In this document: positions 1 to 21,062 of the stretch, piece by piece
How the letters are laid out: every line of letters starts with the position of its first letter
Numbering within the stretch: position 1 is the stretch's first letter
Origin: a virus
Taxonomy: Duplodnaviria > Heunggongvirae > Uroviricota > Caudoviricetes
Virus record (IMG/VR): IMGVR_UViG_2778261164_000008
DNA length: 24,703 bases
Direction: 5' to 3' (one strand)
The notes under the pieces: generated by a model
Databases searched by the model: none
What the model saw: the letters and a program-made list of their open reading frames with translations, nothing else
What the model was told of the DNA's origin: nothing
Translations under genes and position numbers: made by a program

Positions 1-1053
1 TTACGGGGTAATGCCAACCGCTGCCGCCACTTTGTCGCCACTTGGCAGCGTTGCCAGAGGATTGAAACGGAGCGCCGTTTCTAGATGATCCGGTGCCAGA
101 TGTGCGTAACGCATAGTCATTTTTATATCGTGGTGTCCGAGAATTTTTTGTAAGGCCAGAATGTTTCCACCCGACATCATGAAGTGCGCCGCAAACGTAT
201 GGCGCAGAACGTGTGTGAGTTGACCGCGAGGGAGCACGATAGACGTTTTTTCCATCACGGATAAAAATTGAAAATAGCAGTCTGTGAAGAAATTGAACCC
301 ATCAAGCGCCATGATCTCTTCGTAAAGCTCTTTACTGATAGGGATGCTTCTGTTTTTCTTCCCCTTCGTTCTGACAAAGGTAATTCGGTATTTGGTCACC
401 TGTGAGCGGGTAAGATTTACGGCTTCACGCCAGCGTGCGCCTGTGCTTAAGCATATCTTAACTACCAGTGCCAGAATTGGGTCCTGACGTTTGCAATCAG
501 CCAGCAATTCAACAATCTGCTCATGGGTAAGCCATGCCATCTCTTTTTCTGCGATGGTGAATTTTCGCATGTTCTCCAGTGGGTTCGGATACGACCATTC
601 GCCCAGACGGGATAGTTCGCTAAAAACACTACTTAGATAGCTTTGCTCTAGGTTAATGGTGACCGGGCTTGCTCCTTTCTTCCATTTCTCGCTGAAGTAG
701 ATCTCGCCTGTCAGGCGTTTATCTCGATAGTGGGCAAACATTTTAGAGGTGAGATCGGTTGCAAGAGGATTGCCCAGAGCGTCAACCATCAACAGCAATT
801 TGTCATAGACATGCTGCCCAGCTGTCAGAGATTTACCATGTAGTTTGAACCATAGCTCAACCACGTCTTTCAGTGTTCGACGATCCACTGATTCACCCAG
901 CCAGGGCTTTGCTTCGGTTTCTTCCATCGTGTGGCGCTCAAAAGCCAGTGCTTCGCCTTTGGTAGCGAATTGTTTACGCACACGACGCCCACTTCGTCCG
1001 GCGGGGTAACATTCGCAAAGCCATTTCCCTGTGGTTAGTTTTCGTACTGCCAT
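1..1053 (-). CDS. int: Phage integrase, tyrosine recombinase (P2/186 Int family)
   Basis: 350-aa ORF with ATG at 1051-1053 and stop at 1-3. N-terminus MAVRKL...KQFATKGEALAFE and C-terminal LTHVLRHTFAAHFMMSGGNILALQKILGH...MTMRYAHLAP match the 186/P2 integrase pattern as I recall it (R..H..R..Y catalytic region). Confidence 0.9.
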   Translation of the reverse strand: MAVRKLTTGKWLCECYPAGRSGRRVRKQFATKGEALAFERHTMEETEAKPWLGESVDRRTLKDVVELWFKLHGKSLTAGQHVYDKLLLMVDALGNPLATDLTSKMFAHYRDKRLTGEIYFSEKWKKGASPVTINLEQSYLSSVFSELSRLGEWSYPNPLENMRKFTIAEKEMAWLTHEQIVELLADCKRQDPILALVVKICLSTGARWREAVNLTRSQVTKYRITFVRTKGKKNRSIPISKELYEEIMALDGFNFFTDCYFQFLSVMEKTSIVLPRGQLTHVLRHTFAAHFMMSGGNILALQKILGHHDIKMTMRYAHLAPDHLETALRFNPLATLPSGDKVAAAVGITP

Positions 1054-1135: not shown

Positions 1136-2812
1136 CTAAGCAACATGTAGTTCATCGTTGGCGGAAGTGGCTGCTTTGCGCTCCTGCTCAATAGCTAGAG
1201 ACTCTCTATATTCTTTCGCCTCTGCAAACATTGTCCAGTGGGCGTTGATGTTCATGTCTTCAATAACTGATTTGATTTCTTTTAAATTTACGTTAAAAAA
1301 CTCTTTTCGTGAGTTAATTTTATTGACCTGCTTTTCGTTGAAAACTTTATGCAGATGGTTTTCTAATGATGGTGCATCATCACTATAAATCATCGCATGA
1401 ACATCGAACGAAAAAGGAACACTAGCATCTCCGAGTTCACGAACACGATCAAGTGGTTCAAGGCGGCGTGTCATTCCAATTTTATATACATCTTCGCCAA
1501 ATGAACCAATATTACTAATGATATAGACGTGGCCTGATCTGGTTTGTTGAGCCATAGAAATAGCTCGTTGATTTTTAGCTTCAGCTTCTTCATATTTTAA
1601 CTGTAGTTCAGCTATTTTTTGCTCTAAAGCTAAGCGTTGTTCTTCATTTGCAAGCATAAGTTCTTTCGTTGCTTTATTTATAGCTTGCTGAATAGCTTTT
1701 TCTTCTTTTTCAGCTTCTTTTATCGCTTTTTCATATTCCCTACGAGCTCTTTCCTCTTCACGAAGCTGTTCTTTAATCCTTCTTTGCTCTTCTTTTTCTT
1801 CGAGCATAATTTCATTAACTGCTACACCCCATTTTAGCTCGTTGAGTCTTGCCTGAAGATAGATGTCACTTATTTTTGCGGATCTAAAGGCAGAGCCATT
1901 GTAATTTACTAGTTGAAATGCATCTTTTATTTCTTGGGAAAGTTTTCCAAAATTGTTGTGTTTGACTTTTGATAAAATACTGTCAACTCTTCCATTGAAG
2001 GCATCCAAAACAAAGTTTATGGCAGTATTACGCCTGTTTTGCTCAACATAATCACACGAAGCAGCTTTATTAGTTTTTATTAATGATTTGGTTAACTCTC
2101 TGGCTTTTTGTAATTCCTTGCCTGCATCTGTAAATTCATAATTTTCTGCCAGCTCATCAAGTACACTACGGTTAGGGATGATCCATTCATCACCATAACC
2201 TTCAATTTTATTTTTCATTGATTTTGCAACTGCTTCATATTTTTCTGCAAACTCTTTAGCTTCATATGCTGAACCAGCAATCTCCTTTGCTCTTTCTTCT
2301 GCATCAGAAATAATTTTTACTGCATTGTCATTAGCATTTGAGATTAGCTCATTTGCTTTATTATTAGCATTATCAAGACGTTCTTTGGCTTTCAGGCGTG
2401 CATCGCGAGCGTCTTTGGTGATTGCTATAGCTTCGCTATTAGCGTTGCTTATTGTCATCTGAGCTTGATAATTTGCTTCGTTTACTGTTTTAGCCGCCTT
2501 AATTTGGGCTTCATCTATTTTTTGCTTGGCTATTGAGTCCGCATTTTTTATCTTATTCTCTGCATCCATTACTGCGCTGTGCAATTCTTCGTATTGCCAC
2601 AATGGTGCTGCTCGCCCTTCAAGCTCTGATAATTCTCGTACGGTCTGTGCTAGTTTTTCTTGATTTTCAATCAGTTGGTTAGAAAGGGCTATGTTGTTAG
2701 CTGTCAGGTTATCTATAGCCGCTTTGTGTTTTTTACTTTGTTTAAATAATATTACAGCTAGAACAGGGGCGAGAAATGCTAATAAGAGTATAACGATGGC
2801 AAATGAATTCAT
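1136..2812 (-). CDS. Membrane-anchored coiled-coil protein with C-terminal T5orf172/GIY-YIG-like domain (DUF4041-like architecture); cargo gene
   Basis: 558-aa ORF, ATG at 2810-2812 with an AAGGA Shine-Dalgarno about 8 nt upstream on the minus strand. Hydrophobic N-terminus (MNSFAIVILLLAFLAPVLAVILF), long K/E/A-rich coiled-coil-like middle, C-terminal GHVYIISN...YKIGMTRRLEPLDRVRELG resembling the T5orf172/MUG113 GIY-YIG-like motif. Visibly AT-rich relative to flanking phage genes. Confidence 0.8.
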   Translation of the reverse strand: MNSFAIVILLLAFLAPVLAVILFKQSKKHKAAIDNLTANNIALSNQLIENQEKLAQTVRELSELEGRAAPLWQYEELHSAVMDAENKIKNADSIAKQKIDEAQIKAAKTVNEANYQAQMTISNANSEAIAITKDARDARLKAKERLDNANNKANELISNANDNAVKIISDAEERAKEIAGSAYEAKEFAEKYEAVAKSMKNKIEGYGDEWIIPNRSVLDELAENYEFTDAGKELQKARELTKSLIKTNKAASCDYVEQNRRNTAINFVLDAFNGRVDSILSKVKHNNFGKLSQEIKDAFQLVNYNGSAFRSAKISDIYLQARLNELKWGVAVNEIMLEEKEEQRRIKEQLREEERARREYEKAIKEAEKEEKAIQQAINKATKELMLANEEQRLALEQKIAELQLKYEEAEAKNQRAISMAQQTRSGHVYIISNIGSFGEDVYKIGMTRRLEPLDRVRELGDASVPFSFDVHAMIYSDDAPSLENHLHKVFNEKQVNKINSRKEFFNVNLKEIKSVIEDMNINAHWTMFAEAKEYRESLAIEQERKAATSANDELHVA

Positions 2813-2832: not shown

Positions 2833-3429
2833 TTAATTCGAGACTATTGTACTTCTTATACAAGCAACCACTTCAATATCAGAAAATGCACATTCAAAGC
2901 TATTCTCTGCTGTTGTAATTTTAATCATTCCTTTAGGAAGCCTTGTGATTTTTCGAATGGAATAGGTTCCGTCGATATTGATTAACCAGTTTCCATCAAG
3001 TACTTCAGAAAATTTTTGATCACAAATGTATGTGACGAGTCCATCCTGAACAACAATTGGTGATGAAAGGTTTGCAGGAAGAAATGATGAATCGAAGACA
3101 TATGAACCGTCTTCAATCATTTTGCCTGCGGCAAGGCGAAACTTAACAAGCTCTTCTGTAGCTGCTGTCAGCGAGCTTTGCTTAAGGCCTTGTCCGGTAG
3201 TTAACCATTTGAGGGAGGTTCCTGTTTCAAGAGCACATTGGATTATCCAGTCAGCAGGAAATGTATCCCGCAAATACCTGTTCGCTAGTGTGCTTTTTGA
3301 TACTTCCAAGTGATCAGCTAAAGCCTGTCGTGTCGTAAAGCCATAGGCTTCGACTAATCGCTCAATCGCAGCCTTACCACCTTTATTGGGATTTATTTTG
3401 ATCTCACTTGGGTACTTTGATGTTGACAT
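2833..3429 (-). CDS. cI: Phage immunity repressor CI (186-type)
   Basis: 198 aa, ATG at 3427-3429. N-terminal segment ...VEAYGFTTRQALADHLEVSKSTLANRYLRD...CALETGTSLKWLTTGQG resembles the 186 CI HTH region as I recall it; C-terminal FECAFSDI also similar. Divergent from apl/cII as in the 186 switch. Confidence 0.8.
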   Translation of the reverse strand: MSTSKYPSEIKINPNKGGKAAIERLVEAYGFTTRQALADHLEVSKSTLANRYLRDTFPADWIIQCALETGTSLKWLTTGQGLKQSSLTAATEELVKFRLAAGKMIEDGSYVFDSSFLPANLSSPIVVQDGLVTYICDQKFSEVLDGNWLINIDGTYSIRKITRLPKGMIKITTAENSFECAFSDIEVVACIRSTIVSN

Positions 3430-3451
3430 ATCTCTTTTGCGATCCTAGTAT
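3423..3451 (+). promoter_or_regulatory. Candidate rightward lytic promoter pR (sigma70-like)
   Basis: TTGACA at 3423-3428, 17-bp spacer, TAGTAT at 3446-3451, directed toward apl/cII and overlapping the cI start codon. Confidence 0.5.
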
Positions 3452-3458
3452 CAGTTTT

Positions 3459-3474
3459 GTACCCAATTGGGTAC
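3459..3474. promoter_or_regulatory. Perfect 16-bp palindrome, candidate CI operator
   Basis: GTACCCAATTGGGTAC at 3459-3474, immediately downstream of the candidate pR -10 element in the cI-apl intergenic region. Confidence 0.55.
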
Positions 3475-3524
3475 TTGTCACGATTACTACAGGCTCACCA
3501 CAAGCCAATAGGAGATGTTGCATC

Positions 3525-3746
3525 ATGACCCCTAACATTTCAATAACTCTGAATACGCCACACGTCACAATCGAGCGTTATAGCGAACTTACTGGTCTTT
3601 CAATCGACACAATCAACGATATGTTGGCGGATGGTCGCATTCCTCGGCATCGTCTTCGTAAAGACAAGAAAAGAGAAAAGGTAATGATCAACCTTGCTGC
3701 TCTTACCGTTGATGCACTTACTGATTGCAATGTTGTATTCAACTAG
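3525..3746 (+). CDS. apl: Apl/Cox-like excisionase and transcriptional switch protein (small HTH)
   Basis: ATG at 3525 with GGAG 10 nt upstream; 73 aa [42 protein letters not shown]...; first rightward gene opposite cI, as for 186 apl / P2 cox. The track ORF begins earlier (3408) but that extension overlaps the cI start and promoter region. Confidence 0.7.
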
Positions 3747-5579: not shown

Positions 5580-6433
5580 GCACCATCCTGAAATGGGCGG
5601 GAAATAAAACCGCCATTATGCCAGAACTGAAAAAATACCTTCCTGCTGGCCCGCGACTGGTTGAACCTTTCGCGGGTTCCTGTGCTGTGATGATGGAAAC
5701 GGATTATCCCAGCTATCTGGTTGCGGATATTAATCCTGATTTAATCAACCTCTATAAAAAGGTTGCCGCTGATTGTGAATCGTTTATATCTCGCGCCAGA
5801 GTTTTATTTGAGATCGCAAACAGGGAGGTGGCTTATTACAACATAAGGCAGGAGTTTAACTGCTCAACTGAAATTACTGATTTCATGAAAGCGGTATATT
5901 TCCTGTATCTCAATCGTCACGGTTACCGTGGTTTATGTCGCTATAACAAGAGCGGGCATTTCAACATTCCCTACGGTAATTATAAAAATCCGTATTTCCC
6001 TGAAAAAGAACTTCGCACATTTGCAGAAAAAGCCCAGCGAGCAACGTTTATCTGCGCCAGCTTTGATGAAACGCTGGCGATGTTGAAGGCGGGAGATGTG
6101 GTGTATTGCGATCCGCCATATGACGGTACGTTTTCCGGCTATCACACTGATGGTTTCACTGAAGATGACCAGTATCACCTGGCATCCGTTCTTGAACATC
6201 GGTCATCAGAAGGACATCCGGTCATTGTTTCTAACAGTGACACATCCCTGATCCGTTCGCTGTATCGCAATTTTACTCACCACTATATCAAGGTAAAACG
6301 CAGCATCGGTGTGGCAGCTGGCGAGGGTAAATCAGCAACAGAAATCATTGCTGTTTCCGGGCCGCGCTGCTGGATGGGATTTGATTATTCGCGTGGCGTG
6401 GATAGTTCTGCCGTGTACGGAGTACGTGCATGA
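5576..6433 (+). CDS. dam: DNA adenine methyltransferase (Dam-like, GATC-type N6-adenine MTase)
   Basis: ATG at 5576 with GGAGGT RBS at 5565-5570. N-terminal LKWAGNK...EPFAGS (AdoMet-binding motif) and catalytic DPPY at CDPPYDGTF. Stop overlaps the gene A start (ATGA). Confidence 0.9.
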
Positions 6434-8844
6434 GTCATGCCGATATGAACAACTGCTGCGGCTTTAACGAGGCTGCCGCAGCATTCTCATGGAACAGCCC
6501 GAAAAAGGCCATTAACCCTTATCTGGACCCGGCGGAAGTTGCGCCGGTTTCTACGCTTTCAAACCTGATCACTCTGTACGCTGCCGATAACGAGCAGGAA
6601 CAGTTGCGCCGCGAGGCACTGAGTGATCAGGTCTGGGAGCGTTATTTCTTTAATGAATCACGTGATCCTGTCCAGCGCGAAATGGAGCAGGATAAGCTCA
6701 TTAGCCGGGCAAAGCTGGCGCATGAGCAGCAGCGTTTTAATTCAGACATGGTCATTCTGGCGGACGTCAACGCCCAGCCTTCCCATATCAGCAAGCCGCT
6801 GATGCAACGTATTGAATACTTCAGCAGCCTGGGCAGGCCAAAGGCTTATTCCCGCTATTTACGTGAGACGATTAAGCCATGTCTGGAACGACTGGAGCAT
6901 GTACGCGACAGTCAGCTATCTGCATCTTTTCGCTTTATGGCAAGCCATGAAGGGCTGGACGGCCTGCTGATCCTGCCTGAAATGAGTCAGGATCAGGTGA
7001 AACGCCTGTCCACCCTGGTAGCTGCGCATATGAGTATGTGCCTTGATGCAGCTTGTGGTGATTTGTATGCCACCGATGACGTTAAGCCAGAAGAAATCCG
7101 CAAGACATGGGAAAAGGTGGCAGCGGAAACCCTGCGTCTGGATGTCATCCCACCTGCGTTTGAGCAACTCCGTCGGAAAAGAAACCGCCGTAAACCCGTG
7201 CCCTATGAACTCATTCCGGGTTCGCTGGCGCGTATGTTGTGCGCCGACTGGTGGTATCGGAAATTATGGAAGATGCGTTGCGAATGGCGGGAAGAGCAGT
7301 TGCGCGCTGTTTGCCTGGTCAGCAAAAAAGCATCTCCTTATGTCAGCTATGAAGCCGTGATGCATAAACGTGAGCAGCGCCGTAAGTCGCTGGAGTTTTT
7401 CCGTTCTCATGAACTGGTGAACGAAGACGGCGACACGCTGGACATGGAGGATGTGGTAAACGCCAGCAGCAGCAACCCTGCGCATCGCCGCAATGAGATG
7501 ATGGCCTGTGTTAAAGGTCTGGAGCTTATCGCGGAAATGCGCGGTGACTGCGCCGTTTTCTACACTATCACCTGTCCGTCGCGTTTCCATTCCACGCTAA
7601 ATAACGGCAGACCAAACCCGACCTGGACAAACGCGACGGTAAGACAAAGCAGCGATTATCTGGTCGGCATGTTTGCTGCATTTCGTAAGGCGATGCACAA
7701 AGCCGGGTTGCGCTGGTATGGCGTGCGGGTGGCTGAGCCGCATCATGATGGCACAGTTCACTGGCACCTGTTGTGTTTCATGCGCAAAAAAGACCGCCGT
7801 GCCATCACTGCATTACTGCGTAAGTTTGCCATCCGTGAAGACCGCGAGGAGCTGGGCAATAACACTGGGCCGCGCTTTAAGTCTGAGTTGATTAACCCGC
7901 GCAAAGGAACGCCGACAAGCTACATCGCGAAATATATCAGTAAGAACATTGACGGTCGTGGTCTGGCTGGCGAGATCAGCAAGGAAACGGGTAAATCTCT
8001 GCGTGATAACGCTGAATACGTGAATGCCTGGGCGTCTCTGCATCGTGTTCAGCAATTCCGCTTCTTTGGTATTCCGGGGCGTCAGGCTTACCGTGAACTT
8101 CGCTTGCTGGCTGGTCAGGCGGCAAGGCAACAGGGTGACAAAAAAGCAGGTGCGCCGGTACTGGATAACCCGCGTCTTGATGCCATTCTGGCTGCTGCTG
8201 ATGCTGGTTGTTTTGCCACCTACATCATGAAGCAGGGCGGCGTACTGGTTCCCCGTAAATATCACCTCATCAGAACCGCTTATGAAATCAACGAAGAGCC
8301 GACCGCCTATGGCGATCACGGCATTCGTATTTATGGCATCTGGTCACCCATTGCAGAGGGCAAGATCTGCACTCATGCAGTGAAGTGGAAAATGGTTCGT
8401 AAAGCCGTTGACGTTCAGGAGGCGGCAGCCGACCAGGGCGCTTGCGCCCCTTGGACTCGTGGCAATAACTGTCCCCTTGCTGAAAATTTGAACCAACAGG
8501 AGAAAGATAAATCAGCTGATGGGGACCCCAGAACGGACATTACCAGCATGGATGACAAGGAGTTGCACGATTACCTGCACAGTATGAACAAAAAAGAGCG
8601 CCGGGAACTGGCTGCAAGGTTACGCCTGGTGAAACCGAAACGGCGTAAAGACTACAAACAGCGAATTACAGACCATCAGCGACTGCAGCTCGTGTATGAG
8701 CTGAAGTCCAGAGGATTTGATGGCAGCGAGAAAGAGGTCGATTTACTCCTTCGCGGAGGCAGTATTCCGTCAGGAGCAGGCCTGCGTATCTTCTATCGGA
8801 ACCAGCGTTTGCAAGAAGATGATCAGTGGCGGAACCTGTATTAA
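6430..8844 (+). CDS. A: Replication initiation endonuclease gpA (rolling-circle, P2 A family)
   Basis: 804 aa; contains [10 protein letters not shown] (HxH metal-binding motif of the rolling-circle initiator) and a YIAKYISK tyrosine region; size and position match P2/186 gene A. Confidence 0.9.
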
Positions 8845-8997: not shown

Positions 8998-9186
8998 ATG
9001 CAGGACTATTTTTTGGAGTCTTTGAAGCTCCAGCGCATTGATTTTTTTCTTAAGCTTGTAGCGGCTAGTGAGTGTAGTGATGAAGAGAAGGGGCTGGCTC
9101 TGCAGTGGGTTTCTGAATTGACTGATGAACTCATGGCAAAAATCAGAACCCACGAATACAACCGCTCAATGGATGTCATCAGCTGA
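8998..9186 (+). CDS. Small SOS-regulated protein (possibly Tum-like antirepressor N-terminal part)
   Basis: ATG at 8998 preceded by GGAGGAAAG; 62 aa; directly downstream of the LexA box, in the position of the 186 tum operon. Confidence 0.5.
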   Translation: MQDYFLESLKLQRIDFFLKLVAASECSDEEKGLALQWVSELTDELMAKIRTHEYNRSMDVIS

Positions 9187-9196
9187 GGTGACTTTT

Positions 9197-9430
9197 ATGC
9201 GCATTGAAATAATGATCGATAAAGAGCAGAAGATTAGCCAGTCTACCCTGGACGCCCTTGAATCCGAGCTTTACCGCAATCTGCGCCCCCTGTATCCCAA
9301 AACGGTAATTCGCATTCGCAAAGGTAGCTCTAACGGTGTGGAACTAACCGGACTGCAACTGGACGAAGAAAGAAAACAAGTGATGAAAATTATGCAGAAG
9401 GTGTGGGAAGACGACAGCTGGCTGCATTAA
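9197..9430 (+). CDS. DinI-like protein
   Basis: ATG at 9197 with GAGGTG RBS; 77 aa MRIEIMIDKEQ...LDALESELYRNL...KVWEDDSW resembles E. coli DinI in length and pattern (MRIEV...ETWE..W). Confidence 0.8.
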   Translation: MRIEIMIDKEQKISQSTLDALESELYRNLRPLYPKTVIRIRKGSSNGVELTGLQLDEERKQVMKIMQKVWEDDSWLH

Positions 9431-9757: not shown

Positions 9758-10576
9758 ATGCGAGTTAATTACGATGTTATTATCAAAAGCGGCGATGATG
9801 AAGTAGATATGGAATACGGTCTCGACACGCTTGCAGGAACTGCAGAGGTTACTTGCTTGTTGGCGGAGGCTATACTTAGGAAAGTAATAATAAAGCGCCG
9901 CTCTCATGTAAATCCTGCAAGGGCTGTACTCAAGAGGAATTTCACCGGTTCTTATGGTCAAAATTTTGACTTGGTTATTAATGATGCTGAACTGGTATCA
10001 GAACTTCGCAAAATATCTAAACCAGTATTTAATGAAGTGATGAGTTTCTTTATTTCGCAATCATTATATTTAGAGAGTCGCGAACTTTCCAATGAAGCGG
10101 AAGAAGTAGTTAAAGGTTTATCGGATATTGAGGATGAGTTGATAGGTCGTATTCGAGCTCCTCTAAAAAGAATGCATGAAATTAATCTCAAAAAAAACTA
10201 TAATATCGAGTTAAACTTTAAACAGCGTGCCCATGATAAGAAAAAAGTAATTGAATTAGATACATCTACTGCAACAAATTTATTCACATCACGTGTTTTA
10301 AAAAAGACTGAAGTAATCAGGGCTTATATTACAAGATTTAATGCTCGCACTGGCAATGGTAGGCTTGTTCTTGAGGGCGAAAATGATACGGTGGCATTTG
10401 GGTTTTATAGCCCCTTACGTGTCATCATTCCAGCTCAAAAAAGAATGATTTCGGCTAACTTACATGTAAATAATCCGCCTTCCACTGCTGGCTATATTTA
10501 TCTTGAACTGACTGTAAGTCGGGTAATAATTAACAGTGGGGAAACTGTGAAATATTTAGTGCATACGGTGCAGTAA
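9758..10576 (+). CDS. Hypothetical soluble protein, gene 1 of AT-rich two-gene cargo cassette
   Basis: 272-aa ORF, ATG at 9758 with AAGGAAAG RBS; AT-rich; no family recognised by eye. Confidence 0.7.
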   Translation: MRVNYDVIIKSGDDEVDMEYGLDTLAGTAEVTCLLAEAILRKVIIKRRSHVNPARAVLKRNFTGSYGQNFDLVINDAELVSELRKISKPVFNEVMSFFISQSLYLESRELSNEAEEVVKGLSDIEDELIGRIRAPLKRMHEINLKKNYNIELNFKQRAHDKKKVIELDTSTATNLFTSRVLKKTEVIRAYITRFNARTGNGRLVLEGENDTVAFGFYSPLRVIIPAQKRMISANLHVNNPPSTAGYIYLELTVSRVIINSGETVKYLVHTVQ

Positions 10577-10577
10577 G

Positions 10578-11324
10578 ATGTTAAAAATAATTTGTTTAGC
10601 TCTCATAATAATAGTTTTGGGGGTTTATTGTATTAAGTTTGGCCCCTGGTACTTAAGTACTCAAGATGCTGATGTTTGGGGGCAATTTGGGGACTTCATG
10701 GGTGGGGTCCTGAATCCTATACTAAGTTTTATCTCGATTTGCCTGCTGATTCGCTCTGTAACTTTACAAGTGCAGTCTAACTCAACATTGAAACAAGAGA
10801 TAAAAAGACAAGAGTTACTTGAAGATTACAAAAAATTTGAAGTGAGGTTTTTCTGTCTAATTGAATCTCAAGATTCTAATTATAATAAATTGCGTATTGT
10901 AATCGGTAATGGAGCAGATAATGATGATGAAAGTAAAGGGGGGGGGACCAAAGAACCTACACTTATTGAGTATAGATCTAATAATGCTATAACTTTCATT
11001 GATGATAACTTGAGCATCTTGGTTAGAGCTGGAATAGAAAAGAAAAGAATCATTGCATGGTTGGAAAGTTTAGATGTTGATGATCATTTTTTCTCTTTGG
11101 TAAGAAGATTTTATCTTTTGGTGAAGTTGATAGATGATAAAGTTGAAAGTGAAAAAAAAGCTGAGCAATATGAGCTGTTAATAAATATGACTGATGAAAA
11201 GCTTTTGACTATGATTGTTATTCTTTGTGAGTATTTTGATTGGGCAAATGTTTTGTATATTAAAAATAGTGGAATCATAGAGCAGGCTAAAATGGATGAC
11301 TATATTTCTAATTATAGAAACTAA
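10578..11324 (+). CDS. Hypothetical membrane protein (2 predicted N-terminal TM helices), gene 2 of cargo cassette
   Basis: ATG at 10578, 1 nt after the upstream stop (translational coupling). N-terminal hydrophobic segments LKIICLALIIIVLGVYCIKF and GGVLNPILSFISICLLI; the rest is charged and soluble-looking. Confidence 0.7.
   Translation: MLKIICLALIIIVLGVYCIKFGPWYLSTQDADVWGQFGDFMGGVLNPILSFISICLLIRSVTLQVQSNSTLKQEIKRQELLEDYKKFEVRFFCLIESQDSNYNKLRIVIGNGADNDDESKGGGTKEPTLIEYRSNNAITFIDDNLSILVRAGIEKKRIIAWLESLDVDDHFFSLVRRFYLLVKLIDDKVESEKKAEQYELLINMTDEKLLTMIVILCEYFDWANVLYIKNSGIIEQAKMDDYISNYRN
10938..10946 (+). repeat. G9 homopolymer tract inside the membrane-protein gene
   Basis: ggggggggg at 10938-10946 (encodes KGGG) inside an otherwise AT-rich gene. 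Confidence 0.9.
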
Positions 11325-11375
11325 ATAACCTCAAACACTTTTTCAATGTTTAAGGTTTACCGGGTTTGTTGTTAT

Positions 11376-12407
11376 TTAATTATCTAAAGTGTATTGGGTG
11401 AATGAAATAATTTTTTCGCCCACCCAAGAATTAACTTCTTTTAATCGCCCTTGTAGATAAATTAATTCATTACGTACAAATACCAGACTGGCCTTCTCCA
11501 CATCTCCAAACCCACCTACATTGCTCGGCATAATCCCCATCATTTGCGGCGGCACACGGTGTGCAGCCATCATGTCGTCCCGGCTCACGTTCTTGATGTT
11601 CAGAAATTCATCCTTCGCTGCGACTTCTGACAGCGGGATGATCTGAAGCCCGTCCTTTTTGCCGTTAGGCGAGTACATAAACAGGTTGCGGAAGTTGCCT
11701 GGACCTTTGGCGCTTTTCATCGCGTTGCGGAGGTTGTTCACATCTTCCTGGTTCTGCGCGGCGTCGGTCATATACATGATGAAGCCAGCATGACTGCCGT
11801 TAATGTAATACTTTCGACGGAACAGCGTGGCGGACTCATTGAGCAGGGCGGACGGAATGGCAGAAAGATAGCCGGGCAAGCCGTAGATCTCCTGGTTAAT
11901 GTCCGGTTCCATCAGATGAAAAATGCTGCCTTTCGTGAACTGATATGGCTGGGTTGTCATACCGTATTGCACAAACCAGTAGGTATCCAGGTCTAACCCG
12001 CGTCGGGTGTATTTTGCCAGCGCAGGCTCAAGGGCGATAACTTCACCGAAGCGGTTCGTGCGTTTCTCCAGGTAGGCGTTACCAAAAACCAGATAGTCCT
12101 GCACAAAACGCGAAAAAGCCTGCTGGCTGAGCAGCGGGTGAGGGATGTAGGTGCTGGTCAAAATGTTGCATTTCACCGCAATCGGTGAGCTGTGATGCAC
12201 GGCGGCGCGGAAGGTTCGTGCCAGTCCGTCAAAGCTGACGGGCGGCTCATACCAGCGATCCATCTGTACGCATTCCACATAGTCCAGCAGTTCGCGGCGG
12301 TCCAGAACAGGAACGGGATCACCGAAGCTGAATGCTTCGGCTGAAGTCTGGCTTTTATGCTGGTTCTGGTTCGTCGACGCAGCGCGGTTCTTCTTACTCT
12401 TTCCCAT
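11376..12407 (-). CDS. Q: Portal protein gpQ
   Basis: 343 aa from ATG at 12405-12407, which overlaps the P stop (TGATG); the track ORF starts one codon earlier at a TTG. Size matches P2 Q (~344 aa); position downstream of terminase P on the leftward strand. Confidence 0.9.
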   Translation of the reverse strand: MGKSKKNRAASTNQNQHKSQTSAEAFSFGDPVPVLDRRELLDYVECVQMDRWYEPPVSFDGLARTFRAAVHHSSPIAVKCNILTSTYIPHPLLSQQAFSRFVQDYLVFGNAYLEKRTNRFGEVIALEPALAKYTRRGLDLDTYWFVQYGMTTQPYQFTKGSIFHLMEPDINQEIYGLPGYLSAIPSALLNESATLFRRKYYINGSHAGFIMYMTDAAQNQEDVNNLRNAMKSAKGPGNFRNLFMYSPNGKKDGLQIIPLSEVAAKDEFLNIKNVSRDDMMAAHRVPPQMMGIMPSNVGGFGDVEKASLVFVRNELIYLQGRLKEVNSWVGEKIISFTQYTLDN

Positions 12408-14173
12408 CAAAAAATCTCCACAATATTGCTGGCATTGGCGGACTCGCCCTGCAGCGGTTCGTTAAACAGTGCGTGCATTGTTGCCCAGGCCAGATCGGCA
12501 TGGCTGGCTTCTTCGCTGCGGCTGGCTTCATAGGTCGGGCGGTTGCCGCTGGCGGTGGTGGCGCGACGGATTGCCATGAATGACTGCGCAATGTCGGTGT
12601 GTCCGGCGTCAAATTCCAGGCGGCGGTGACTGATAATGTCGTAGGCCTTGAGTACCAGGGCGTTTTTAACGTTGGGGTTGTAGACAAACTCCCGGACGGC
12701 AGGAAAAAACGCTTTCACGTTCTCGTAAACCCCGTGACCGACGCCGGTCGAGTCGATGCCGATATAGGTCACGTTATACTGTTCGGTCAGTTTTTTGATG
12801 GCGTCAGCCTGGGCGCGGAAGTCCATTCCGCGCCACTGGTGACGCTCAAGAATGCGGAACTTACCGCCCGGCACGACTGGCGGTGCCACCACCACGCATC
12901 CGGCGCTGTCGCCGTTCTGCGTACCTTTTGCCGGGTCATAACCGATCCACACTTCGCGCCAGCCAAACGGGCGCAGGGCCAGTGCATGAAAGTCGGTCCA
13001 GACTTCCCAACTGTCCACCATGCACGCCTGCAGCTCGCTGAGCGGGAACACGGACGCGAGATCGTCCACGAACTCACACATCAGCAGGTTCTGGTATTCG
13101 TCCGGGCTGTATTCCATGCGCAACTGGTCAAGGTCGAACAGGTTACAGCCGCCGCGCACCGCATCTTCTACGGTGACTATCTGGCGGTATTGCCCGTCTG
13201 CGCACAGCAGGCCGGGGGCCAGATTGCTGTGGGACAGGTCGATGTCCACCTTGTCGGCTTTGTTGCGTCCACGGTTGAACAGCGCACCGGACCAGAACGG
13301 ATAAGCACTGTGGGTCAGGCTGGATGGCGTGGAAAAATAGGTTTGTCGCCATTTTTTGTGAATAGCCATACCGGAAGCCACTTTGCGCAGCTCCTGGAAT
13401 TTCGGTATCCAGAAATATTCATCCAGATACAGGTTGCCGTGGTAACTCTGGGCAGTGCGAGCATTGGTGCCGAGGAAATACAGTGTGGCCCCGTTGGGAA
13501 GCACCATCGGATCGCCTTTCAGCTCCACTTCCACTTCTTTGGCGAAGTCGATGATGTACTGCTTAAAGACGTGCGCCTGTGCCTTACTGGCAGAAAGGAA
13601 AATCTGGTTACGTCCGGTTAGCAGGGCGTCAATCAGGGCTTCACGGGCAAAATAGAAGGTCGCGCCGATCTGGCGTGACTTCAGCAGGTTGCGGATGCGG
13701 TTGGTTTTTCCGGCTTCCCACCAGTGACGCTGGTAGTTGAACATGGAGGAATGGAAGATTTCTTCCAGCTTCTCAATCTGTTCATCGGTGAAAACATTCT
13801 TTTCAGGCTGACGGCGCGGGCCTTTGTTGCGGTTGGCGACGTTAGGGTTTAAATCGGCTTCGTTGCCGCCATTGTTAAACTTGCCGATCCGCGCGTGGCG
13901 CTCCGACTGGCGCGCCAGCAGATCAATTTCTTTGAAATCTTTCCCTTCTTTGTGCTCCTTCATAATGAGCTGGCAGTAACGTGCGGCGGTGGTGAGCTGC
14001 ATCTGATCCAGCGGCCCATAGTCACCCCACTTGTCGCGTTTTTTCCAGCTGTGAACGGTTGCAACTTTCTCGCCCAGCATTTCAGCAATGCGGGCGACGC
14101 GGTATCCCTGAAAGTACAGCAGCATGGCCTGCCGACGGGGATCGAGATCTGCGGGTGTCAGTGTGGTGTTCAT
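12407..14173 (-). CDS. P: Terminase large (ATPase) subunit gpP
   Basis: 588 aa, ATG at 14171-14173; size and synteny with Q, O, N, M match P2 gpP (~590 aa). Confidence 0.9.
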   Translation of the reverse strand: MNTTLTPADLDPRRQAMLLYFQGYRVARIAEMLGEKVATVHSWKKRDKWGDYGPLDQMQLTTAARYCQLIMKEHKEGKDFKEIDLLARQSERHARIGKFNNGGNEADLNPNVANRNKGPRRQPEKNVFTDEQIEKLEEIFHSSMFNYQRHWWEAGKTNRIRNLLKSRQIGATFYFAREALIDALLTGRNQIFLSASKAQAHVFKQYIIDFAKEVEVELKGDPMVLPNGATLYFLGTNARTAQSYHGNLYLDEYFWIPKFQELRKVASGMAIHKKWRQTYFSTPSSLTHSAYPFWSGALFNRGRNKADKVDIDLSHSNLAPGLLCADGQYRQIVTVEDAVRGGCNLFDLDQLRMEYSPDEYQNLLMCEFVDDLASVFPLSELQACMVDSWEVWTDFHALALRPFGWREVWIGYDPAKGTQNGDSAGCVVVAPPVVPGGKFRILERHQWRGMDFRAQADAIKKLTEQYNVTYIGIDSTGVGHGVYENVKAFFPAVREFVYNPNVKNALVLKAYDIISHRRLEFDAGHTDIAQSFMAIRRATTASGNRPTYEASRSEEASHADLAWATMHALFNEPLQGESANASNIVEIF

Positions 14174-19746: not shown

Positions 19747-19838
19747 AGATTCACGCTTTTGCTAGCTTCTACAAGGTTTTATGCTTCTAAACACTGTATG
19801 TTTAATTTGACATATAACTATTTGTACAAGCGGTGAGT

Positions 19839-21062
19839 ATGAAAAAGCAAGATGAGTCCCCCAAAGCTGATAAATCAAATTTAGATAAAAGTGAGTCTGA
19901 ACCACCAAAAGCGAACTCTATGGCAGATGCCATGGCCATAGCGGCAGAGGTTGCTACGACAGCAACGTCAGTTCAAACATCAACCTTTGCAATTATCGCG
20001 GATTTTCTACGTTCAGGTGGTATAGAAAAACTAACTTCAAATGCTATCAAAAATTTAGAAATAAAAGTAAAGGGCCATTCTCAAGCGACAAGAACTACGG
20101 TATTGAGGAACCTGAAGACCTCTTTCAAAGAGGAGAATTTAGTTCTTGTTTTAGGTGCTGGCATTTCTTTAGATTACAGCATACCAACATGGAGTGAATT
20201 ATTAAAGCGGCTATTGGCAAGAGCTTTGGATGATAAAAATGAAAATCAGAAAATGGTATCGGTTTTGTTTAATGAGGTTTTCGGTCCGAACGCACTCATA
20301 GCAGCCAGATATCTAAAACTACACTTTGATGGTATTAATACTCCCTTGGAAAAAGAAATTCAGCATGTTTTGTATGAATATTATCAGGAGGAAGAAAGCA
20401 GTACATTGAAAGCAATCAAGAAATTGTGCATATCGGCAGGCAAGTCACCAGGTCTAGATTCCGTTATTACATATAACTATGATGATATTTTGGAACAGAC
20501 ATTAACTAGAGCTGATGTTGGTATAAAGTATAAGGTGATTTCAAAGACGGGGCAGCATGCAAAAAATGATGAACTGCCGATCTACCATGTGCATGGCTAT
20601 CTCCCATTGCAGGGGAAAGTTGAACTCGATGACACGCTAGTCCTTTCTGATGAAAGCTATCATAGGCAATACATGGATTTATACCATTGGAGCAATATGG
20701 TTCAGTTGAATAAATTCAAAGATGGAAATTGCCTGTTTGTTGGTCATTCCTTTACAGATCCAAACCTCAGAAGGTTGATGGATACAGCCAAAAAACTTAG
20801 AGGGAATGATTCTAAACCTCATTATTTAATTAAGTGTAGACATTCGAAAGAAGATGTGATTGCTAATATTCAAAGAATTGTTAGTGACTCAAGAAATGGA
20901 TTTGATAATAAACTGAATATTAATGAGGATGCAATCGCGACCTCTCTTTTACAGACAGTGCATACTTTTGAAGAAATCGATGCTAATTCATTTGGCGTGA
21001 ATGTTATTTGGATCGACTCTTACGATGAGATTGCACCAATACTTAATGATCTAACACAATAA
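19839..21062 (+). CDS. SIR2-like (SIR2_2 family) protein, candidate NAD+-consuming defence effector; cargo gene
   Basis: ATG at 19839 (the track ORF begins two codons earlier at a GTG). After a ~100-aa Lys/Ser/Ala-rich N-terminus: LVLVLGAGISLDYSIPTWSELL (Rossmann GAG), LPIYHVHGY (candidate catalytic His) and CLFVGHSFTDPNLRRLM, all characteristic of prokaryotic SIR2-like domains. AT-rich; inserted between S and the V late promoter. Confidence 0.8.
   Translation: MKKQDESPKADKSNLDKSESEPPKANSMADAMAIAAEVATTATSVQTSTFAIIADFLRSGGIEKLTSNAIKNLEIKVKGHSQATRTTVLRNLKTSFKEENLVLVLGAGISLDYSIPTWSELLKRLLARALDDKNENQKMVSVLFNEVFGPNALIAARYLKLHFDGINTPLEKEIQHVLYEYYQEEESSTLKAIKKLCISAGKSPGLDSVITYNYDDILEQTLTRADVGIKYKVISKTGQHAKNDELPIYHVHGYLPLQGKVELDDTLVLSDESYHRQYMDLYHWSNMVQLNKFKDGNCLFVGHSFTDPNLRRLMDTAKKLRGNDSKPHYLIKCRHSKEDVIANIQRIVSDSRNGFDNKLNINEDAIATSLLQTVHTFEEIDANSFGVNVIWIDSYDEIAPILNDLTQ

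Follow-up and report, generated by a model that had tools for sequence, protein, structure and literature searches.

The window analysed here, that is, the whole 24.7-kb stretch of viral DNA held as IMG/VR record IMGVR_UViG_2778261164_000008 (24,703 nt), is a P2/186-like prophage that carries, ahead of its portal gene, a two-gene cassette composed of gene A (9758-10576, plus strand, 272 amino acids (aa)) and gene B (10578-11324, plus strand, 248 aa). Gene B, whose product is a remote relative of the abortive-infection proteins AbiC and AbiP, contains an in-frame run of nine G residues. We find that this G9 run recurrently gains or loses a single G in related genomes, and we consider it probable that it is an incidental, young and hypermutable run situated in a tolerant, disordered loop of an AbiC/AbiP-like protein, the second product of a candidate cassette. 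Runs of this kind are well known, and the present one adds a further case; it would illustrate on a small scale, in nature, how a prophage cargo gene can lose its function again and again once a young homopolymer has appeared in a loop that tolerates change.

The run occupies positions 10938-10946 of the plus strand (AAAGTAAAGGGGGGGGGACC; in its wider context, GAAAGTAAAGGGGGGGGGACCAAAG) and encodes codons 121-123 of gene B (Gly-Gly-Gly), the open reading frame (ORF) 10578..11324 being in phase with position 10938 and G121-G122-G123 standing within SKGGGT. An initial annotation of this DNA had described a G9 tract coding in frame for KGGG in an otherwise AT-rich gene, and the description was exact: the GC content is 0.30-0.35 over 10001-11500, against 0.52-0.60 in the flanking phage genes. 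No other homopolymer of nine or more is present in the window; second in length come two A8 runs, which start at 10190 and 11152. In dinucleotide-preserving shuffles of the window the mean number of G9 or C9 runs was 0.09, with at least one in 7 of 100 shuffles; a chance origin of the run is unusual, not impossible, and since the shuffles alone do not rule it out, our argument rests on comparative data instead of rarity. Apart from the run, gene B has 10 Gly codons, and GGG, with 4 of them, is the commonest.

The products computed for the different run lengths are 248 aa for G9, 137 aa for G8 and 130 aa for G10. Both truncations end soon after residue 123, the alternative frames past the run stopping after 7 and 14 codons and encoding nothing conserved. 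The expectation that a change of one G would truncate a protein with two transmembrane (TM) segments after about 120 aa was thus borne out, both in the computed products and in the presence of two hydrophobic segments. The genome EC590 is annotated with the same split ORFs, and the run explains why gene B is annotated as two fragments in some genomes. Two properties of contingency loci are therefore seen at this site, namely a mononucleotide run of about 7-8 or more inside an ORF and a switch between full-length and truncated products upon a change of +1 or -1.

At the protein level, the run falls in a place where variation appears to matter little. In the AlphaFold (AF2) model of the gene B protein, which has a predicted local distance difference test (pLDDT) score of 85.6, helices 2-21 and 31-103 (the latter a long stalk) are followed by a beta hairpin formed by residues 106-110 and 129-133, and then by a helical C-terminal domain. 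The run is placed in the loop of this hairpin, the hairpin itself lying between the stalk and the C-terminal domain, and residues 113-124 are the sole segment of the model with a pLDDT below 50. The same stretch is the most variable and indel-rich part of the family alignment of 39 homologues, and the profile-profile alignment treats it as an insert state against the profile of the wider superfamily. As the loop is disordered, variable and inserted, changes within it should be tolerated by the protein.

The relationship of gene B to AbiC and AbiP emerged from profile comparison and not from direct family searches. Neither cassette protein received a direct Pfam, NCBIfam or PADLOC family assignment, and both belong to PHROG families without known function (phrog_8999 for gene B). 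Pfam returned nothing for the gene B protein or for any of its 39 aligned relatives even at E<=1, putAbiC (PF16872) included; the PADLOC AbiC and AbiP models did not match the gene B protein, and a PDB sequence search retrieved nothing. A ZorB3/MotB-like match (E 3e-4) and a match to NCBIfam PRK09040 covered the second TM helix (TM2) region only and were treated as unreliable. When the family profile built from the 39 homologues was searched against 1.8 billion proteins, 6612 representatives were obtained; eight of ten distant profile matches carry Pfam putAbiC and several match the PADLOC AbiC/AbiP models. In a profile-profile alignment by hhalign, the gene B family aligned with putAbiC-type proteins over 228 columns with a probability of 99.9% and an E value of 6.6e-34, the homology spanning the TM module as well as the putAbiC domain. 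Judged by these profiles, gene B is a remote member of the AbiC/AbiP-like (putAbiC) superfamily of abortive-infection membrane proteins; because the direct Pfam test failed, we file it as a relative of putAbiC and not as a member of that family. Some database sources already call the gene B protein 'Phage abortive infection protein'.

The N-terminal TM helices are evident as hydropathy peaks at about residues 1-27 and 39-66, and the positive-inside rule suggests that the C-terminal domain is cytoplasmic. The role of potential membrane effector given to this protein in the initial annotation is consistent with the putAbiC homology, and gene B would plausibly be the effector of an abortive-infection-type cassette. 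The invariant residues of the gene B family cluster in or just before TM2 (W34, G38, D39, G42, G43, N46, P47, L49 and F51); residues 39-51, which correspond to window positions 10692-10730, are where the weak ZorB3/MotB-like and PRK09040 matches fall, and a conserved Asp placed at a TM helix is reminiscent of proton-channel stators, although no reliance can be placed on so weak a match. A large number of database proteins 100-133 aa long align with the N-terminal two-TM-plus-stalk module only (P0246, P0249, P0254, P0265, P0267, P0269 and P0287). These could be natural short forms or fragments, and they bear on the possible activity of the truncated 130/137-aa product of gene B.

The run itself is specific to one lineage of the family. 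It is limited to one clade at >=99% identity and is absent from all homologues at <=79% identity in the family alignment; in the next relatives (75-79% identity) unrelated sequence stands in its place, and none of 22 full-length homologues from other species has a G or C run of seven or more. Homologue P0025 shows the same KGGG at the same loop, encoded as GGT GGT GGT. A scan of viral and metagenome contigs for the DNA pattern flanking the tract, with any tract length allowed, returned no loci and hence no further tract data. Conservation of the tract across diverged alleles and homologues, another property of contingency loci, was thus not observed. The initial annotation had named two findings that would tell against its interpretation of the run, an invariant tract length and the replacement of the tract by non-repetitive sequence in homologues; the replacement was found, whereas the length is not invariant.

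The inspection of related genomes that the initial annotation had called for revealed all three of the lengths G8, G9 and G10. The cassette is present in 5 of 5426 E. coli RefSeq genomes, at >=99.6% identity: two have G9, two have an in-frame G10 and one, EC590, has a G8 frameshift that splits the gene. The in-frame G10 results from an A-to-G change in the 3' flanking base at position 10947 of the plus strand (T124A), which extends the run (L003, L005 and L015; proteins P0051 and P0315). A look-up of contigs by the exact gene A product, which is unbiased for the state of the tract and took in the 24 longest contigs, gave 10 distinct places, of which 7 have G9, 1 an in-frame G10, 1 G7TG and 1 G8. 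In samples not selected for tract state, the frameshifted form is therefore found in 1 of 5 E. coli RefSeq genomes and in 1 of 10 distinct places.

A larger sample came from searching about 15 billion proteins for exact sequences; in it, contig counts do not represent independent isolates and 40 of the 73 cluster members are covered. The G9 product was found on 329 contigs, the in-frame G10 alleles on 16 (P0315), 14 (P0051) and 4, and the interrupted alleles KGGET, KGGVT and KGRGA on 12, 5 and 2, while the -1 product (137 aa) occurred on 10 contigs and the +1 product (130 aa) on 4. About 14 of 404 contigs (3.5%) have a frameshift at the run and about 390 (~96%) are in frame. The frameshift products of G7 and G11 were found nowhere among the roughly 15 billion proteins, and neither were the in-frame products with three G more or fewer, looked up in three backgrounds. 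Taken together, the run variants among the relatives are G8, G10 (+1), in-frame G10, G7TG, G7AG and the interrupted form giving KGRGA, and in the 90% cluster the differences between protein variants are, with few exceptions, confined to residues 122-124.

To relate these alleles to one another, cassette haplotypes were typed at ten single-nucleotide polymorphism positions, and each of four haplotypes contains in-frame as well as frameshifted copies. Haplotype A is in frame with G9 in L004, L008 and L010 and frameshifted with G8 in EC590, CP016012 and a Logan contig; haplotype B is in frame with G9 in L002, L007 and L013 and frameshifted with G8 in L096 and L101. In haplotype C an in-frame G10 (L005) is accompanied by a frameshifted G9+CC (L097 and L102), and the same holds for haplotype D (G10 in L003 and L015; G9+CC in L098). 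The +1 allele (G10+ACC) is found on haplotype B in two protein backgrounds, and the -1 product occurs over at least four different upstream hotspot contexts. With the -1 change on four haplotypes and the +1 change besides, at least five independent slippage events have to be assumed. The run is thus prone to slippage, as had been predicted from its length, with G8 and G10 alleles on several haplotypes and in several prophage backgrounds. Independent OFF-length (frameshifted) polymorphism in close relatives, a third property of contingency loci, is present, although part of it may be assembly noise. The spread of a single ancestral frameshift by clonal descent is ruled out, since each of the four haplotypes has in-frame copies too, and so is general prophage decay, most frameshifted copies being in prophages with intact portal and terminase genes.

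Base substitutions concentrate at the same place. Among 16 copies of the 1567-bp cassette, 3 of 13 true variable sites lie within the 10 bp at 10938-10947 (Poisson P about 9e-5), and the A-to-G change at the 3' flank is of the type expected of transient misalignment. The share of frameshifted copies was 5/39 for the in-frame G10 form and 9/346 for G9 (Fisher P 0.008, the copies not being independent). In E. coli, indel rates climb exponentially with homopolymer length, and G:C runs of 8 bp are already outliers (PMC8510543), so that a G9 run should be a hotspot even where switching is not selected for.

We propose that the run would occasionally be misaligned during replication, and that a 1-nt loop evading mismatch repair would then leave a G8 or G10 allele and a protein ending at 137 or 130 aa. 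The truncated product would keep both TM helices and the stalk and lose the C-terminal putAbiC-like domain, and would probably be inactive. Transient misalignment could also give rise to base substitutions in and beside the run. The frameshift alleles are recurrent, rare and one step away from an in-frame length, and alleles of this kind fit short-lived loss-of-function mutations better than a maintained reversible switch. If the OFF state were neutral, the frames would have equilibrated over the divergence of the haplotypes; the strong excess of in-frame (ON) copies suggests, as a rough inference, purifying selection for an intact gene B, with OFF alleles that are recent and short-lived.

Several points weigh against this account. 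ON dominance in isolates would also be expected of a phase-variable gene in which the ON state is favoured, and a G8 run in pglX is responsible for true phase variation in Streptomyces (PMC4365076), so that a switch cannot be dismissed on the length of the run alone. In gene A, the A8 run (10190-10197) gives A7/A9 frameshift products on 5 contigs, all of them Logan assemblies (about 1%), and P0013, from a noisy Logan contig, combines compensating frameshifts at the G run with a frameshift at the A8 run. These A8 variants and P0013 errors mean that some of the homopolymer-length variation in the collections is noise, and some of the G-run length variants may be assembly errors.

In an adaptive explanation, the run would be a phase-variation (contingency) switch whose reversible slippage toggles the AbiC-like effector in a fraction of lysogens; protection from phage would thereby be hedged against what an abortive-infection membrane protein costs the cell or how toxic it is, in the way that the G tract of pglX serves Pgl/BREX. 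The initial annotation had suggested such an on/off switch, and we regard it as unlikely. The run is long enough and in frame, one G more or fewer toggles the ORF, recurrent OFF alleles are spread over four or more haplotypes, mostly in otherwise intact prophages, and the other knock-outs of gene B (an IS1 insertion and a 5-bp deletion, described below) suggest that its loss is sometimes tolerated or favoured; the pglX G8 tract, which switches at 1e-2 to 1e-4 and allows an escape from toxicity (PMC4365076), is a clear precedent. However, OFF copies amount to about 3.5% only, every OFF allele is a single step from an in-frame length, no multi-step lengths and no in-frame alleles of the G6 or G12 type were seen among the related sequences, and outside the clade at >=99% identity the run is missing. 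The broad, multi-step range of lengths with a substantial OFF fraction that characterizes contingency loci was thus not found. Moreover, interrupting alleles (G7TG, G7AG and KGRGA) coexist with extending ones, as neutral drift of a loop would give, and the run lies in the middle of the gene, away from its 5' end. The hosts, finally, are mismatch-repair-proficient Enterobacteriaceae, which repair 1-nt loops efficiently.

A bolder form of the same idea, which we hold to be quite improbable, is that G9 is a real prophage-borne stochastic switch for the AbiC/AbiP-like effector in Enterobacteriaceae proficient in mismatch repair, in which a small, reversible OFF subpopulation of lysogens would escape the cost or self-toxicity of the protein or would produce an active truncated two-TM module. 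If this were true, it would amount to bet-hedging of prophage-encoded immunity by a mechanism documented until now chiefly outside enterobacteria, and with any true switch at this site, phase-variable abortive infection would become one more capability of enterobacterial prophages.

It is likewise unlikely that the run is biologically stable and that every length variant is an error made in sequencing or assembling a difficult homopolymer. The initial annotation had allowed for a hotspot of sequencing or assembly error, and this held in part: the A8 control run does give +1 and -1 products in Logan assemblies, errors at both types of run occur in the one contig of P0013, and two of the G8 genomes are finished chromosomes, of a kind that would often be long-read assembled. 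But G-run variants are about three times as frequent as variants of the A8 control, and, unlike the A8 variants, they are present in assemblies that several projects deposited at NCBI (GCA_021277325.1, GCA_029447895.1, GCA_012050605.1, GCA_032271405.1 and two complete genomes); the second A8 run, in gene B (11152-11159), has no length-variant products in the collection. Some of the frameshift contigs are found in two samples or with a second similar place, as an inherited allele would be, and a miscalled homopolymer length cannot account for the base substitutions found at this site, on 5 to 16 contigs each. A part of the G-run variation, and probably most of it, would accordingly be real on the evidence of these assemblies; in practice, G8 or G10 calls at this run need confirmation at the level of the reads.

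That the run is a recoding site, at which slippage of RNA polymerase or of the ribosome would give, from a single allele, a fixed fraction of truncated two-TM product beside the full-length protein, or rescue G8/G10 alleles, is very improbable, given that both alternative frames stop within 7-14 codons without encoding anything conserved, that the run is absent from homologues, that documented bacterial cases use A/T runs, and that G runs, which form a stable hybrid, are not known as slippage sites; a programmed site would call for an A/T run of at least nine and a conserved, extended alternative-frame product, and neither is present here. In favour of recoding, the truncated product would keep all but one of the family's 15 invariant residues, the many 100-133-aa database proteins match the N-terminal module alone, and homopolymers of nine or more can cause transcriptional slippage in bacteria (PMC1088944).

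Gene B is also lost by other routes. In L004 (NZ_OW968288.1) an IS1A insertion splits the gene while the G run is intact (locus about 2921-3618, equivalent to about 11105 in the window), and this is an independent knock-out route. A 165-aa product (P0053, on 5 contigs) fits a 5-bp deletion between direct GAAAA repeats at about 11037-11047 of the window (GAAAAGAAAAG), and, as judged from the protein sequence, gene B would have at the GAAAA site another small hotspot for indels.

The two genes of the cassette appear to belong together. The stop of gene A lies 1 nt ahead of the start of gene B, and the genes are co-conserved in Enterobacterales and beyond, the pair being kept from Enterobacterales to Pseudomonas and Chromobacterium. 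The gene A product is soluble, with a helical N-terminal half and a C-terminal half that forms a beta-barrel resembling OB folds. A literature search found no paper naming the gene A/gene B pair, the RefSeq protein accessions, or putAbiC/DUF7946/DUF7947. From its gene content and location, the cassette is plausibly a candidate anti-phage defence system; as an uncharacterised candidate that pairs an AbiC/AbiP-like two-TM protein with an OB-fold-like partner, it is arguably more interesting than the run.

The cassette stands between the replication protein gene gpA (6430-8844), followed by small genes, and the portal gene, and its composition is atypical; in P2-like phages, this gpA-to-portal interval is the defence hotspot described by Rousset et al. 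(2022, PMC9122126). A DinI-like gene (9125-9430, plus strand) forms the left border of the hotspot, and the gpQ-like portal protein gene (11376-12410, minus strand), convergent with gene B, forms the right one. The 51-bp gap between the two convergent genes contains a terminator-like inverted repeat of 13 pairs (11327-11357, no strand assigned), which is probably a bidirectional terminator. The terminase gene follows at 12407-14173 on the minus strand.

The content of the hotspot is variable. Among the relatives compared for their upstream context (L001/L008/L106, L005/L096/L097/L101 and L003/L015/L098), what stands ahead of the identical cassette takes four forms: no additional gene, as in the window; a pair of genes for 71-aa and 280-aa proteins; a DUF8087 gene; or a ComF-like gene paired with one for a 185-aa protein. 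The DNA between the DinI-like gene and the cassette likewise differs from relative to relative. Four upstream gene sets before an identical cassette fit a hotspot whose content is swapped, and the cargo of this gpA-to-portal hotspot shows modular stacking. In P2 hotspots, defence pseudogenes are reported to be rare, genes being swapped instead of pseudogenised (PMC13586616); the recurrent frameshifts, the IS1 insertion and the 5-bp deletion allele in gene B are a mild exception to that pattern. A megablast search of a phage collection gave no match.

Elsewhere in the window, an integrase gene (1-1053, minus strand) and a 186-type CI repressor gene (2833-3429, minus strand) flank an AT-rich island with a gene for a 558-aa homologue of PD-Lambda-1 (1136-2812, minus strand; PADLOC PD-Lambda-1, E 2e-120), which has DUF4041 and T5orf172/MUG113 domains; this looks like a second cargo/defence locus of the prophage. 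Within the late/tail gene block, an island with a GC content of 0.36 holds a gene for a 409-aa SIR2_2-domain protein (19833-21062, plus strand) with weak ThsA/LmuA-like PADLOC matches, and looks like a third cargo locus.

Among known systems, the run resembles the poly-G/C contingency loci in surface and restriction-modification genes of Campylobacter, Neisseria and Haemophilus, with which it shares a mononucleotide run in an ORF, toggling by a change of one base and length polymorphism between strains. Classical contingency tracts are conserved at their locus, have broad length ranges and large OFF fractions, and occur in hosts without full MutSLH repair, whereas gene B is ~96% in frame, has no alleles with three G more or fewer, and carries the run in one young clade. 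A closer parallel is pglX of the Streptomyces coelicolor Pgl (BREX-type) system, where an in-frame poly-G tract (8 G) also lies in a defence gene and a change of one G inactivates it (PMC4365076). The measured switching of Pgl, however, runs at 1e-2 to 1e-4 both ways, while gene B is represented by rare single-step OFF alleles in population sequences; pglX, moreover, encodes a methyltransferase on the chromosome of Streptomyces, and gene B encodes an AbiC-like membrane protein in a prophage hotspot of a different host.

With regard to the protein, gene B shares with lactococcal AbiC/AbiP (Pfam putAbiC, PF16872; PADLOC) the N-terminal TM segments and a helical C-terminal domain with an RRFY-type motif. 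AbiC and AbiP are single-gene systems, and gene B differs from them in having a partner gene that looks obligate. With regard to its position, the cassette behaves like the P2 hotspot cargo described by Rousset et al. (the tin/old position, PMC9122126): it lies between gene A of the phage, that is, the replication gene, and the portal gene Q, is AT-rich, is swapped among otherwise similar prophages and includes a transmembrane candidate effector. Unlike known P2 hotspot cargo, the gene A/gene B pair matches no PADLOC 2.0 system model, and a conserved pair of this kind would be worth cloning.

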